Below, in pieces: positions 6,843-12,142 of a DNA stretch of 12,142 bases. Source of the stretch: a virus; UHGV virus genome UHGV-0116081. The stretch is one strand, 5' to 3'. The position numbers and the translations under genes are program-made. Under the pieces are notes generated by a model. The model saw only the letters and a program-made list of their open reading frames with translations. It was not told the DNA's origin and did no database searches. Numbering within the stretch: position 1 is the first letter of the stretch; every line of letters starts with the position of its first letter.

Positions 6843-6947
6843 ATGATTCCCTTTAATAGGTATGCACTTACTTATCTAAGTGAGCGAATCATAGCGACTG
6901 GAGATATTTTTGGGAAGTGGAAACGGAAGGGAGTTGTTCTGGTGGGT

Positions 6948-6961
6948 GTCTTTTAAAAGAC
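6948..6961. promoter_or_regulatory. 14-bp perfect palindrome GTCTTTTAAAAGAC in the divergent intergenic region
   Basis: Exact self-complementary sequence read directly, embedded in a 282-bp AT-rich spacer between divergent genes. A half-site-like GTCTTAGAC recurs at about 7024..7032. Candidate operator or origin-binding site. Confidence 0.3.
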
Positions 6962-7124
6962 CTGCTTCCGTATATATTTAATAAGTTACTTATTATTTAT
7001 ATACAGAAACAGGCATAACTTGTCGTCTTAGACACCCAGAAGCTCTACACTTTGAGCCTGTAAAATTGATTAAAAACTTATGTGTAAAATAGAACGCATT
7101 AGTCAGTAGCTAAGAGATGCAATA

Positions 7125-7906: not shown

Positions 7907-7946
7907 TTATGCATTGGCGCGTACATTGCGCCAATGCATAATTTTT
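7907..7946 (+). terminator. intrinsic (Rho-independent) terminator between convergent genes
   Basis: Perfect 14-bp stem TTATGCATTGGCGC / GCGCCAATGCATAA (7907..7920 and 7928..7941) with a 7-nt loop, followed by TTTTT (7942..7946). Starts 15 nt after the GIY-YIG stop; the T-tract abuts the stop of the convergent minus-strand gene. Confidence 0.7.
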
Positions 7947-8304
7947 AACCTTTCTTCATCAACTCTCGTTTGATTTCGTCGGTACGCATCGTGACGTCGG
8001 CAGCAGTGATCGCCTCGTTCAGTTTCACGATGTCTTCGATTTCCTGCGGTGACTTCTCTGCCAGATGGAAAATGGCTGCACGAATCACATCAGAACGGGT
8101 GAACTTCTCAAAACGAGGGATAAACTTCATCATCTCCAACAGTTCGAAGTACTCGTCTTCCAGCGACATTGTGCGGCTTTTAATCTTCTCTTTGCCACGA
8201 GTCGGACGCCCCTGCGGTCTGACTGGCTGGCGCAGTGGAGTGCTGCTTTTGGCCGGTTCTTTAGGCTCATTGCGCTTTGCAAGGTCTCCCATTCTCATGG
8301 ACAT
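7945..8304 (-). CDS. small partition / centromere-binding-like protein (ParG-like, possible ribbon-helix-helix)
   Basis: 119-aa basic protein immediately downstream of parA; its ATG (8304..8302) overlaps the parA stop and is preceded by GGAGGAAG. Disordered Lys/Arg/Pro-rich N-terminus and helical C-terminus (SRTMSLEDEYFELLEMMKFIPRFEKFTRSDVIRAAIFHLAEK). Assignment is by size and context. Confidence 0.55.
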   Translation of the reverse strand: MSMRMGDLAKRNEPKEPAKSSTPLRQPVRPQGRPTRGKEKIKSRTMSLEDEYFELLEMMKFIPRFEKFTRSDVIRAAIFHLAEKSPQEIEDIVKLNEAITAADVTMRTDEIKRELMKKG

Positions 8305-8969
8305 TATTCTTCCTCCAGACTCAAGATGTAATCTACAAACTCTTCGAACTCGGCTTCTGCCTTCTTATCGCGTTCAGCGCCAGTCATTTCAAAGATAGAA
8401 CGACCTGCCTCTTCCGCATCGTCATAAACGTTACGGTTGTACAGATTGACCGGCGCAGCCTCGATGCCGAAAGTTTCGACAATTTCCTTCGCGGCCAGAA
8501 TACGTGATACCTGGGAAGGCAATGACGGACACTGGTTTATTACCGCGCGGATCTTAACTTTCTCGTTCACATTGCGAACGTTGTCGATAATCGGGTCGAT
8601 ATCACGCAGAGATTTCAAATCACGACGTTTAGGGCGCAGCGGGATGATGATTACATCAGCCATAAGCATCGCCAGACGCTGAATTTCGGAGTCAAAGCCA
8701 CCAGCATCTACCACTACATAATCAGTTCGCCCCTGAAGCGATTTAAGATGTTTGACGATGTCGTCCTGCACATAAGCGAACGGGATCAGTTCAAGATCTT
8801 CGTTCTGGCGACGGTCTTCACACCAGCTGGTCGTGGTGCGCTGGATATCGATATCGGTGACGTGAACCTTCTTTTTCTTTTTAACTTTGAGACATACCGC
8901 AATTTGCTGGGCAACGGTAGATTTGCCTGGGCCGCCTTTTGTGCCGCCAACCACAATGATCTTGGTCAT
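8304..8969 (-). CDS. parA: ParA-family partition ATPase (small, type Ib-like)
   Basis: 221-aa ORF with ATG at 8969..8967 and AAGGAAA upstream. Deviant Walker A KGGPGKST within MTKIIVVGGTKGGPGKSTVAQ, and a hydrophobic-D motif YVVVDAGGFD. Contains a lysine run KVKKKKKV encoded by an A-rich tract at about 8867..8884. Confidence 0.9.
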   Translation of the reverse strand: MTKIIVVGGTKGGPGKSTVAQQIAVCLKVKKKKKVHVTDIDIQRTTTSWCEDRRQNEDLELIPFAYVQDDIVKHLKSLQGRTDYVVVDAGGFDSEIQRLAMLMADVIIIPLRPKRRDLKSLRDIDPIIDNVRNVNEKVKIRAVINQCPSLPSQVSRILAAKEIVETFGIEAAPVNLYNRNVYDDAEEAGRSIFEMTGAERDKKAEAEFEEFVDYILSLEEE

Positions 8970-9146: not shown

Positions 9147-9169
9147 GTGTACGGTAAATTGCCGTACAC
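9147..9169. promoter_or_regulatory. inverted repeat GTGTACGG-N7-CCGTACAC overlapping the predicted transcription start (candidate operator)
   Basis: 8-bp perfect arms with a 7-bp spacer, read directly; sits just downstream of the candidate -10. Confidence 0.35.
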
Positions 9170-10119: not shown

Positions 10120-10335
10120 TCACCAACCGCAAACTCTCTCTCCCATCGTATTGTGAAAAAGGATTTGGCGTTCGGTTTCTTCGGTCATTACATCGTCATT
10201 GCTGATATAAATAGGTTCAGCGCCATCGCAGAACAACACGCTGGTGGTCTGTGGCTTAATTACGCACCCACTTATCATGCAGCTCACGATGAATGGCAGA
10301 AGCATCTTTCTGACGTATTTCACTGTTCGTCTCAT
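10120..10335 (-). CDS. o-spanin-like outer-membrane lipoprotein (Rz1-like), overlapped with the i-spanin gene
   Basis: 71-aa ORF with ATG at 10335..10333. N-terminus MRRTVKYVRKMLLPFIVSCMISGC has a basic n-region, hydrophobic core and lipobox I-S-G-C; short mature part ends in a Cys (RVCGW). Its 5' end overlaps the 3' end of the i-spanin ORF (10256..10335) in another frame, the classic overlapped spanin layout. Confidence 0.5.
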   Translation of the reverse strand: MRRTVKYVRKMLLPFIVSCMISGCVIKPQTTSVLFCDGAEPIYISNDDVMTEETERQILFHNTMGERVCGW

Positions 10336-10507
10336 TCACCACTTCCACTGTGCTTTGAAGACGCTTGTTATCTTCCCGCCGTTCTTTCTCTTCCATACTG
10401 CGTCTGGCCATATACCCGCCATAGGAGTATGCGCCGACAAGGACTAGAATGACGGCGGCCAGAGTGAACAAAGCGGATTTCATTTTGAACAACAGGCCGT
10501 CGAACAT
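10256..10507 (-). CDS. i-spanin-like protein (Rz-like; N-terminal transmembrane anchor plus charged periplasmic helix)
   Basis: 83-aa ORF with ATG at 10507..10505, 2 nt after the endolysin-like stop. N-terminal TMD (ALFTLAAVILVLVGAYSYGGY) followed by a Glu/Arg/Lys-rich predicted coiled coil. Shorter than typical Rz. Confidence 0.5.
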   Translation of the reverse strand: MFDGLLFKMKSALFTLAAVILVLVGAYSYGGYMARRSMEEKERREDNKRLQSTVEVVNETNSEIRQKDASAIHRELHDKWVRN

Positions 10508-10509
10508 AC

Positions 10510-11202
10510 TTACACTAATCCTTTCTGGTGCTTGCGAACCTGGGACCAGGCAATGAATGCTGCCACAAGAATGGTAGCTACGCCAAAGATGATGCGTACC
10601 GTATCTCCACTGGAGATATTGCCTTGCGCTTTATCCATTGCGGCAGAAACTTGAGGCATAACGTCAGCAATTTGTGCAAGGCCAATACCTGCAGTGACTG
10701 TAGCACCTGTGGTTTCTTTTGTTACAGGAACGGCTTTTACAGCCTTTACCGGTTTGACAATGCCGGCACGTCGCAGACCTTCTTCGATAAGTTCTGGTGT
10801 ATACCAGCTATTGGGAGTTTTCAGCGGACCTCGGCCATTTTCATGTCTAATGATCGCCTCTACCAGCGGTCTTAAGGTCTCGTAGTCATGCAGATCGATA
10901 ATCATATCTGGTGCTACTCCAACGGCTTTGGATACCTCGTTCACATAAGCCAAAGTGTTGTTCTCATGTGGAGGCGCCCAGCGTTCGATGACTTCGCGGA
11001 TCGTATCAATGCTGGAGCCATCTTTTGCGCGGCGCTTGTCGTGGTAAGTAATGAGTGTCACTGCCAATGCCCGAATCCCCCACACGGGGTCTTTAAACGT
11101 GCAGAAGCGCGGTTCTGAAGAGTTGTTGACTAAGCCCTGCCACGGCGCTCCTTTATCAAGATTACCGGGGTTGTTATTACGAATGCCTCTCGGAGTTTTC
11201 AT
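10510..11202 (-). CDS. endolysin-like protein (peptidoglycan hydrolase candidate) with a C-terminal transmembrane segment
   Basis: Start placed at ATG 11202..11200 (MKTPRGIRNNNPGNL...) because AGGAGA lies 8 nt upstream; the track's start at 11229 lacks this. Sits between a holin-like gene and the spanin pair. Contains the motif GIRNNNPGN, which I associate only vaguely with phage lysis proteins; the catalytic family is not identified. C-terminal hydrophobic stretch IIFGVATILVAAFIAW. Confidence 0.45.
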   Translation of the reverse strand: MKTPRGIRNNNPGNLDKGAPWQGLVNNSSEPRFCTFKDPVWGIRALAVTLITYHDKRRAKDGSSIDTIREVIERWAPPHENNTLAYVNEVSKAVGVAPDMIIDLHDYETLRPLVEAIIRHENGRGPLKTPNSWYTPELIEEGLRRAGIVKPVKAVKAVPVTKETTGATVTAGIGLAQIADVMPQVSAAMDKAQGNISSGDTVRIIFGVATILVAAFIAWSQVRKHQKGLV

Positions 11203-11215
11203 CCTTGATCTCCTG

Positions 11216-11551
11216 TTATTGCAATCCATTTTTTACGCCATACGCGGCCAATCCTAAAAGCAGTACGGTAATAATGAACGACGTTATTTTCGAAACAATG
11301 CCGCCAAAGAACCCACTGGAGATGGTGTCGAGCCGGTTAAGAAGTTTGTCCAGATTGGAGTGCTGAATGCTGTGTTGTGCGGGCGTCATATCGCCAAAGT
11401 AGGTTTTGAGCTGGTCATTGACCTCCTGACCAATTTCCTCGCGTATTTCTTTACCTAATTTGCCTACGACTTCCCGAGCAACGATTGAGGCGATGCGCTC
11501 AACCTGTTCAGTTGTGACTCCCGCCATCTCGTTCGACATGTTTTCCTCCAT
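11216..11551 (-). CDS. holin-like small membrane protein (single C-terminal TMD)
   Basis: 111-aa ORF with ATG at 11551..11549, directly upstream of the endolysin-like gene. Hydrophilic N-terminal ~85 aa, then one strongly hydrophobic segment (FGGIVSKITSFIITVLLLGLAAYGV). Assignment is by context and topology, not homology. Confidence 0.4.
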   Translation of the reverse strand: MEENMSNEMAGVTTEQVERIASIVAREVVGKLGKEIREEIGQEVNDQLKTYFGDMTPAQHSIQHSNLDKLLNRLDTISSGFFGGIVSKITSFIITVLLLGLAAYGVKNGLQ

Positions 11552-11599
11552 GAAAAGTCAAATCGGGATGGCGTGTTTATATCATATTTTAACCATTTG

Positions 11600-11623
11600 T
11601 AGTAGGTATGTACTTACCTACTA
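11600..11623. promoter_or_regulatory. 24-bp near-perfect palindrome TAGTAGGTATGTACTTACCTACTA upstream of the lysis cassette
   Basis: 11 of 12 base pairs symmetric about the centre (one T/T mismatch). Lies in the 121-bp AT-rich gap between the tfa stop and the holin-like start, about 50 bp upstream of the latter. Confidence 0.4.
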
Positions 11624-11654
11624 TATATCTTGCAAACTAATCGTTGTTAATAAT

Positions 11655-11669
11655 GCAGATATAATCTGC
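11655..11669 (-). other. short hairpin GCAGAT-ATA-ATCTGC just downstream of the tfa stop
   Basis: 6-bp perfect arms with a 3-nt spacer, starting 4 nt after the tfa stop codon. No U-tract follows, so it is a weak terminator candidate or a protein-binding site. Confidence 0.25.
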
Positions 11670-11672
11670 CCC

Positions 11673-12142
11673 TTACTCTGCTGGTATTGTTGGCCAGTCA
11701 ATATCCGGTGCCGTTGATGTGTCAATGCGGTTCAATAAAACTCTATACTTCTTCCATGCAGTCAGCAACGATGCTTCTTCCTCCGTTGCAATCTCCAAAT
11801 CTACAGCATCCTGAAGTGGCGCAATGTGCTCGCTGGCTACCTGCATCAGACTTTTTTTTGTTTCTTCCGCTTCCCGTACCTGAAACAATTTTTCTGTTTC
11901 CTCATCCTTCTCCCAGGATGTGCCGTCCCACTTCTGATATTCCCCATCCGGTGATAACCAGGTGACATTTTCCGGTAATGGCCCAAGTTCAGAAATAAAC
12001 AACGCGTCCCCTGATTCCACGTCATAGACCGTTTTACCCCTGTGGTCTTCAACGAGACTCCATGATTTATTTTCGCTGTTGAATACGGCCACGAAGCCTG
12101 CCGGAATATCTGGCGGTGCAATATCGGTACTGTTTGCTGGCA
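11673..12142 (-). CDS. tfa: tail fiber assembly protein (Tfa family), N-terminus beyond window end
   Basis: C-terminal sequence ...[61 protein letters not shown] closely matches what I recall of enterobacterial prophage Tfa proteins. The track's GTG start at 12092 is probably internal: the frame stays open upstream to the window edge (...[25 protein letters not shown]...), which also matches the Tfa N-terminal region. Confidence 0.85.

Follow-up and report, generated by a model that had tools for sequence, protein, structure and literature searches.

The stretch analysed here, UHGV virus genome UHGV-0116081 (12,142 nucleotides, hereafter the window), contains at one end part of a tail fibre assembly gene (tfa) and, downstream of it, a lysis cassette of holin, endolysin and spanin genes, all of them on the minus strand (Table 1). 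The spacer between tfa and the holin gene holds a 24-bp near-perfect palindrome, TAGTAGGTATGTACTTACCTACTA, which has no loop and in which 11 of the 12 pairs are complementary. From the end of the palindrome it is 48 nt to the first in-frame ATG of the holin reading frame (11551) and 60 nt to the annotated start further downstream (11539), which is preceded by a Shine–Dalgarno sequence, GGAGG; initiation at the upstream ATG would lengthen the product by four residues. An earlier reading of the window, made from the letters alone (the sequence-only reading), had given this palindrome with its exact sequence and coordinates and with the right gene names. The region from 11400 to 11800 is 100% identical to Escherichia coli plasmid pTB212 (NZ_CP033252.1, 110,417 bp) and approximately 82% identical to phages SSU5 and Cyrano, matches by which the element is identified as an SSU5-like phage-plasmid. 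Relatives of the locus were found in 797 plasmid records from Klebsiella, Escherichia, Enterobacter, Salmonella, Citrobacter and Yersinia.

Viewed alone, the palindrome is suggestive and modestly unlikely by chance. It is the only 24-bp palindrome in the window with one mismatched pair or fewer, and at least one palindrome like it occurs in 3.5% of dinucleotide-preserving shuffles of the window (n = 2000), such that the earlier description of it as far longer than chance palindromes was, for the window by itself, a mild overstatement. A chance origin is excluded because there are copies elsewhere in the element, because the site is conserved in 79 relatives and because SSU5 carries matching sites. 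Specifically, when the 110-kb pTB212 was scanned with ATAGGTAAGTACTTACCTAT, allowing up to five mismatches, 23 matches were obtained, two of which overlap, leaving 22 sites where shuffled sequences give approximately 0.35. A position table built from the 44 half-sites yields a 22-bp dyad, R-ATARGTAAGT/ACTTACYTAT-Y, with an identical consensus in both halves. In SSU5 there are 19 copies within three mismatches where none is expected, located at matching gene junctions, and the SSU5 holin site (TTTTGTAGGTAAGCGCTTACCTACAAAA) is a perfect palindrome of 28 bp. The exact 18-mer was met in only 31 stretches of the viral contig collection, and several of the contigs that carry it are also among the relatives recovered with holin and phrog_2500. 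The sequence-only reading had proposed that further half-site copies be sought: the relaxed consensus finds the 22 sites, whereas the window yields no convincing second match to the exact half-site (TAGTAGGTA/GTAGGTAAG, up to one mismatch), because it is ATARGTAAGT that is conserved as the half-site.

Nearly all of these sites occupy short spacers before lytic-strand genes of pTB212. All but two of the 22 fall outside annotated genes and ahead of minus-strand (lytic) genes, at distances of 13–130 nt, and the genes behind the dyads include those for replication, recombination and nucleotide metabolism, the terminase/portal junction, head and tail genes, a tail fibre gene and the lysis cassette. 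No copy accompanies the genes of the opposite strand (fimbriae, toxin–antitoxin pairs, restriction–modification, a FljA-like protein), the exception being the promoter of a repressor gene described below. The idea of a site for late-gene control or lysis timing is therefore too narrow, in that replication and nucleotide-metabolism units are covered as well as structural and lysis units, the apparent regulon being specific to neither late genes nor lysis timing. Four sites end 13–18 nt ahead of a start codon, directly before the Shine–Dalgarno sequence; one of these is at the terminase/portal junction, and terminase and portal are surely co-transcribed. Several dyads have G+C-rich hairpins downstream of them, with or without a run of T, or terminators upstream. 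We found no shared distance between the dyad and a −10-like hexamer among the 22 sites in either orientation, which rules out a promoter architecture common to all of them.

Symmetry of this kind might arise from a protein that binds the DNA or from a structure of the nucleic acid itself, and the sequence-only reading had named a cruciform or RNA hairpin as its alternative. Such a structure could be an RNA hairpin (a tfa terminator, a processing or stabilising element, or a translational regulator) or a DNA cruciform, and in its favour the copy in the window folds with −10.8 kcal/mol when its flanks are included, the SSU5 version is perfect over 28 bp, and several copies lie just ahead of ribosome-binding sites. 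Yet the two arms do not behave as paired strands. The 22 copies contain 165 Watson–Crick pairs out of 220; exchanging right halves at random between sites gives 164.5 ± 3.9, and thus the halves drift from the consensus independently of each other. Likewise, the 31 distinct variants of the holin site among relatives are nearly all changed on one side only (G-C to A-C or T-C, A-T to A-A or A-C), with isolated cases of change on both sides, and neither in this family nor among the 22 copies were compensatory base-pair changes found: on both arms it is the sequence that is conserved and not the pairing. As RNA, the copies are predicted to fold with −0.7 to −10.8 kcal/mol, many of them weakly (−0.7 to −3); at the copy in the window no terminator is called and there is no T tract, the A+T-rich stem being followed by ACAAATGG; and, should the start predicted below be correct, the lysis mRNA would begin downstream of this copy and not contain it. 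Given the missing covariation, the weak folding of many copies and the missing T tract, we rejected the hairpin, terminator and cruciform readings and regard a structural role as highly improbable. Symmetric conservation without selection for pairing instead points to a homodimeric protein on double-stranded DNA, as the sequence-only reading had proposed with its dimeric-regulator binding site, a proposal strengthened by the 22 copies, their shared half-site consensus and the independent drift of the halves. Judged by these comparisons, the palindrome is very probably an operator of a phage-encoded dimeric regulator and part of a genome-wide regulon.

At the lysis cassette itself, the dyad occupies a fixed place in a conserved block. 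We aligned the region upstream of the holin gene from 79 relatives, representing 17 unrelated upstream contexts (tfa, cor and various tail fibre ends), and found that conservation sets in at the dyad, where all 17 contexts join one common block. After the dyad come a 17-nt spacer of variable sequence, an invariant T-TG-TATAA, a strongly conserved leader and the Shine–Dalgarno sequence, with TATAA starting 20 nt past the core dyad in 78 of the 79 relatives and 21 nt past it in pHCM2. The −10 hexamer is TATAAA, TATAAG or TATAAC, its last base never being the consensus T, and for this reason a simple promoter scan calls no promoter here. Sigma-70 promoters in general start transcription about 7 nt downstream of the −10 hexamer, and with a start accordingly predicted near 11569 the dyad would cover about −52 to −33 of the lysis promoter, with its centre at −42.5. 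The lysis cassette thus appears to be driven by a dedicated sigma-70 extended −10 promoter without a usable −35, and this promoter is probably weak by design, or regulated.

Several further observations concern the same region. The leader is conserved beyond what a ribosome-binding site needs, and its CCAT and ATGG could pair, partly masking the Shine–Dalgarno sequence. In several lineages the stop codon of the upstream gene lies inside the left half-site (GTG TAA GT), and another dyad is found ahead of a tail fibre gene (pTB212 43523), such that two dyads bracket the host-range cassette; dyads may serve as recombination linkers at module junctions. Yersinia pestis pMT1 (430–600 of the retrieved stretch) retains the lysis promoter’s extended −10 and leader; its dyad is degraded, its spacer is shorter and IS100 interrupts its holin gene, features that mark the pMT1 locus as a decayed remnant of this lysis module.

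The geometry is conserved at two further placements. The second dyad of the window is directly followed by a Shine–Dalgarno sequence and stands ahead of a gene for a 241-aa protein that heads the helicase–primase block. In 31 relatives an invariant ...ACTTCC.AAA...CCAGTCG.TAT(G/C)AT... ends 12 nt before this dyad, from which a start near 6881 is predicted for the replication operon (DnaB-like helicase and primase), with the dyad at about +7 to +26. The geometry of the lysis promoter recurs at pTB212 95059 and SSU5 78709, where 18 nt separate the dyad from TGATACAAT or TGATAAAAT, one base more than in the lysis promoter. Here the dyad and extended −10 promoter are followed by approximately 600 nt without an annotated gene (pTB212 94480–95060; SSU5 78730–79146); this region has no match in Rfam, and may encode an undescribed phage RNA. 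The dyad at pTB212 93862 is followed by a conserved leader with four or five short hairpins.

Table 1. Positions of the features discussed; coordinates refer to the window unless another record is named.
Feature	Position	Strand	Size, basis or remark
Near-perfect palindrome TAGTAGGTATGTACTTACCTACTA	11600..11623	none	24 bp; read directly
Core dyad GTAGGTAAGT/ACATACCTAC (minus strand)	11602..11621	none	20 bp; member of the family R-ATARGTAAGT/ACTTACYTAT-Y
Extended −10 TATGATATAAA (TRTGn plus hexamer TATAAA at 11581-11576)	11576..11586	-	T-TG-TATAA invariant in 79 relatives
Predicted transcription start of the lysis operon (~11569)	11567..11571	-	Inferred, ~7 nt past the −10 hexamer
Conserved 5′ leader GCCATCCCGATTTGACTTTTCATGGAGGAAA, Shine–Dalgarno GGAGG at 11544-11548	11540..11566	-	Family alignment
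Tail fibre assembly gene, 3′ part (lambda-tfa-like; variable module upstream of the dyad)	11673..12142	-	Gene end at 11673
Holin gene	11216..11539	-	Annotated start 11539 (RefSeq correspondence); labelled holin in the SSU5 and Cyrano records
Endolysin gene	10510..11202	-	
Rz-type spanin gene	10256..10507	-	
Second dyad of the window, minus strand ATAAGTAAGTGCATACCTAT	6856..6875	none	13 nt ahead of a GTG start; conserved in 31 relatives
Promoter-like block TTCCCA-17-TATGAT	6888..6916	-	Conserved in the family; ends 12 nt before the second dyad
CYRAN_45 homologue of pTB212 (WP_003980690.1)	pTB212 15725..16114		129 aa; match to PHROG XRE-type regulator family
Example of the Acinetobacter dyad, TATTAGTAAGCGCTTACTAATA	NZ_CP107594.1, retrieved stretch 32311-32332		

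The protein most likely to bind these sites may be sought among the regulators that the family conserves. In Cyrano, the helix–turn–helix protein CYRAN_45 is considered a putative repressor by the authors who described it, its expression in the lysogen is 10-fold over background, and the phage is induced by genotoxic stress (PMC9928086). The pTB212 homologue has no match in Pfam or NCBIfam and only a marginal match to an XRE-type domain among solved structures; its gene adjoins the integrase gene and is divergent from the first lytic-strand gene. The repressor–integrase pair occurs in approximately 1000 plasmids, including pHCM2 (85% identity) and pMT1, and the genus counts from the repressor search and the holin-region search are similar, being, respectively, 348 and 310 for Klebsiella, 230 and 286 for Escherichia, 92 and 92 for Enterobacter, 49 and 50 for Salmonella, and 25 and 25 for Citrobacter. 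Across five lineages the repressor is 64–86% identical overall, with a helix–turn–helix segment that is almost invariant. An invariant CTTTACAA...TGTAATATC-R-GTAAG-Y-ACTTACCA precedes its gene in pTB212, pHCM2, E. coli, Klebsiella and Cyrano; here the promoter is read as a −35 TTTACA, 16 nt and a −10 TAATAT, and a dyad of the family (ATCRGTAAGYACTTACCA) begins inside the −10. This dyad, at about −8 to +12, reads as being in the usual place for negative autoregulation. On the opposite, lytic-direction side of the repressor gene, TGATACAAT is followed directly by a half-site, AGGTAGTA.

SSU5 lacks exactly the module of integrase and XRE repressor (SSU5 NC_018843 42596–42761, as compared with pTB212 15256–17212 and Cyrano 41090–43038). 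Judging from this comparison, SSU5 is probably a lytic deletion derivative whose lytic behaviour is explained by the missing module, and if so the dyads that it retains do not argue against the repressor.

Other regulators encoded by these elements were considered and set aside. The S24-peptidase gene product is UmuD/HumD-like and has no DNA-binding domain; a 186-aa ‘DNA-binding protein’ sits at the position of the HicB antitoxin in Cyrano and was taken, on position and length only, as a toxin–antitoxin component; and the ‘repressor-like’ SSU5_116 has no counterpart in pTB212 and is not related to the XRE repressor. A FljA-like protein (PF03614) is conserved in all relatives, Klebsiella ones included, and no link between it and the dyad was found, nor a binding site for FljA in the publications consulted. 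The latter is a curiosity in its own right: it is a full-length ‘repressor of phase-1 flagellin’ (PF03614 E-value 1.5e-95; pTB212 71301..71828, non-lytic strand; SSU5_121, CYRAN_114), with 68–98% identity in all SSU5-like phages of the collection, those of Klebsiella among them. Klebsiella itself is non-motile.

A more distant relative extends the family beyond enteric hosts. An Acinetobacter baumannii plasmid (NZ_CP107594.1) shares the gene order and has a repressor 37% identical to that of the enteric elements, and its variant of the dyad occurs in eight copies within three mismatches in 50 kb, all intergenic, where none is expected. Among these copies are ones at the terminase/portal junction, at the start of the late operon and just before the capsid gene. 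The inner GTAAG-NN-CTTAC is common to the Acinetobacter and enteric dyads and the outer bases differ; the repressor promoter region reads TTGGGT-17-TATAAT, with a palindrome, ATCAGCACTTACTGAT, in the spacer. By this comparison the dyad arrangement is old and conserved. It does not, however, point to the repressor in particular, since divergence in that lineage extends to every protein.

We infer protein binding, the identity of the binder and the sign of regulation from what is observed of the site family, its placement and conservation, the promoter geometry and the missing hairpin covariation. On this basis we rate it as slightly better than an even chance that the dyads are dispersed operators of the prophage repressor, the likeliest binder being the conserved 129-aa XRE protein homologous to CYRAN_45. 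The prophage repressor is favoured because a conserved repressor with a conserved recognition helix matches a conserved operator, and because repression alone explains every placement: over the −10 and start, just past the start, just upstream of a promoter that lacks a −35, and between cistrons would all be suitable positions from which to block transcription. In the plasmid-prophage state, a bound repressor dimer would deny RNA polymerase the lysis promoter; elsewhere it would block initiation, or transcription arriving from upstream; and once the repressor was lost or inactivated, all lytic units would be freed.

Known systems offer precedents for parts of this arrangement. The dispersed operators of the P1 repressor C1 are similar in that P1 is also a plasmid prophage with many operators scattered at lytic units and sites at the repressor’s own gene (PMC10695390). 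They differ in being asymmetric 17-bp sites bound by the large C1 (called unrelated without a sequence search), as against symmetric sites of 20–22 bp and a small XRE candidate here. The stoperators of mycobacteriophage L5, bound by gp71, number in the tens and occupy short gaps between genes in both the early and the late lytic operons, many lying away from promoters. Their likeness to our sites is one of dispersal only, since L5 stoperators are asymmetric 13-bp sites in strict orientation, whereas the dyads here are symmetric and their orientation cannot be read; blocking of the elongating polymerase in the L5 manner is, for these dyads, a proposal by analogy. The OB sites of KorB in the IncP plasmid RK2 are palindromic, repeated around the plasmid and variable in their distance from promoters, and those of class I, just upstream of the −35 (about −40), repress, from which it follows that a site at −42.5 can be repressive. 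Unlike the candidate here, KorB is a CTP-dependent clamp of the ParB family with a 13-bp site, and no evidence ties the element’s own ParB_N proteins to the dyad. The CI/Cro operators of lambdoid phages are likewise pseudo-palindromic sites for a helix–turn–helix dimer, located at divergent immunity-region promoters and open to sharing by two proteins, but they are clustered at two loci only, whereas the dyads are spread over the whole lytic genome. The closest analogues are thus P1 C1, the L5 stoperators and RK2 KorB for dispersal, and class II activator sites for local geometry.

This local geometry weighs against a repressor, for a dyad centred at −42.5 of a promoter without a −35 would be in the classic position of a class II activator, as at CRP and FNR sites (−41.5) or those of Mu Mor and C (−43.5), which similarly combine a dyad near −42 with a good −10 and no −35. 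Other points weigh in the same direction. The geometry is repeated, one base further, at the second extended −10 promoter conserved in pTB212 and SSU5; a −10 that never ends in T suits a promoter that requires help; the link between repressor and dyad is circumstantial, as any conserved core DNA-binding protein would be expected to give an equal comparative pattern; SSU5 keeps its sites without the XRE repressor, as a function in lytic growth predicts, the sites being read here as relics of a recent deletion; sites between co-transcribed genes, such as terminase and portal, would require the repressor to act as a roadblock; and the late genes of well-studied phages, lysis genes included, are under positive control (PMC10695390). 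One may imagine a conserved regulator of the lytic cycle, Cro-like or acting as a dual switch, that activates in class II fashion, its dimer recruiting RNA polymerase from −42.5, and represses at −10/+1 and at +7 to +26. The spacing of dyad and −10, held across a spacer of variable sequence in all but one of the 79 relatives, would suit such a regulator, as would the suboptimal hexamers, the approximately 19–20 dyads of the repressor-less SSU5, the lack of dyads at lysogeny and cargo genes on the opposite strand (the repressor promoter excepted), and the example of P1, which uses 11 Lpa boxes at its positively controlled late genes (PMC10695390). Those boxes are short inverted repeats at many lytic promoters, and the box AAGTTACTT resembles the dyad centre AAGTACTT, but it is 9 bp long with a central base and lies at about −22 beside the −10, whereas the dyad is 20–22 bp long and would be centred at −42.5. 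No candidate for the part was identified in the element: the best tblastn match to P1 Lpa has an E-value of 0.31 and falls in non-coding sequence with no open reading frame, and T4-type late promoters (TATAAATA) are not enriched. Also against such a regulator, no dyad-to-(−10) distance is common to the 22, the four sites 13–18 nt from a start codon leave no room for a promoter downstream of them, and one conserved site lies downstream of its promoter. Activators cannot work from +7 to +26, from −8 to +12, or between co-transcribed genes, positions which, unlike class II sites, the dyads also occupy, so that two opposite activities would be needed where a repressor needs one. On these grounds we consider an activator or dual regulator, the main rival to the repressor, somewhat unlikely, and note that the two readings would be reconciled if the sites were shared by a repressor and a Cro-like protein.

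Alternatively, the dyads might be loading or nucleation sites of a global silencer or DNA-organising protein of the KorB kind, for which two ParB_N-domain proteins encoded at the head of the late operon are candidates, or might function mainly as linkers for the recombination of modules. Palindromes at variable distances from promoters and also between cistrons do recall the OB sites, and the junction of 17 unrelated upstream modules exactly at the dyad, the stop codon within its left half in several lineages and the further dyad that completes the bracketing of the host-range cassette are what linkers would leave behind. However, the partition locus of the element is elsewhere and has a different palindrome, and the strictly intergenic, gene-proximal placement of the dyads, together with their fixed overlap with three promoters, fits transcription control. 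Breakpoints at the dyad are expected in any case, because the dyad is the first constrained element of the lysis module. A silencer or linker as the main function is accordingly, in our estimation, quite improbable. Elements of several readings could also be combined: in a genome-wide silencing grid, one regulator, or a repressor/Cro-like pair with common sites, would repress through dyads that overlap promoters or stand between cistrons and activate from −42.5 at the lysis promoter and that of the non-coding transcript, while the 20-bp sites double as recombination linkers. We think this unlikely, but if the sites did have a linker role, the joining of 17 unrelated host-range modules exactly at the dyad would thereby be explained, and if the grid as a whole were real, one 22-bp site family would set the whole lysis–lysogeny programme of SSU5-like phage-plasmids.

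The window contains other symmetric sequences. The replication operon and a GIY-YIG gene diverge from a spacer that holds an A+T-rich 52-bp palindrome (6961–7013; 26-nt arms, 85% complementary), found conserved among 31 relatives. At its centre stands TAAGTAACTTA, replaced in some relatives by TAAGTTACTTA; this centre includes the P1 late-promoter box given above and is similar to the dyad centre with a base added. The palindrome might function as an origin or as another operator. Two convergent genes have between them a perfect 14-nt inverted repeat (TTATGCATTGGCGC, 7 nt, GCGCCAATGCATAA; 7907–7941), which is probably a bidirectional terminator. Finally, the spacer that precedes the ParA gene (8304..8969, minus strand) contains the palindrome GTGTACGGTAA-T-TTGCCGTACAC (9147–9169), which shows no relation to the dyad family and is probably the partition or autoregulation site.

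Our search of the openly accessible literature found no account of the motif or of how plasmid life and lysis are controlled in SSU5-type elements. The control principle is familiar from P1, L5 and RK2, and is not surprising as such. SSU5-like phage-plasmids are, however, very common in clinical Enterobacterales, with relatives of the locus in approximately 800–1000 sequenced plasmids of Klebsiella, E. coli, Enterobacter, Salmonella Typhi (pHCM2) and Yersinia (pMT1), and resistance genes have been reported on phage-plasmids, the SSU5 group included. With a consensus, a map of approximately 22 sites, a lysis promoter and a named candidate repressor to work from, the control of lysis and plasmid life in these elements becomes directly testable, and together they suggest a way to predict immunity groups among SSU5-like elements, or to induce or cure them.

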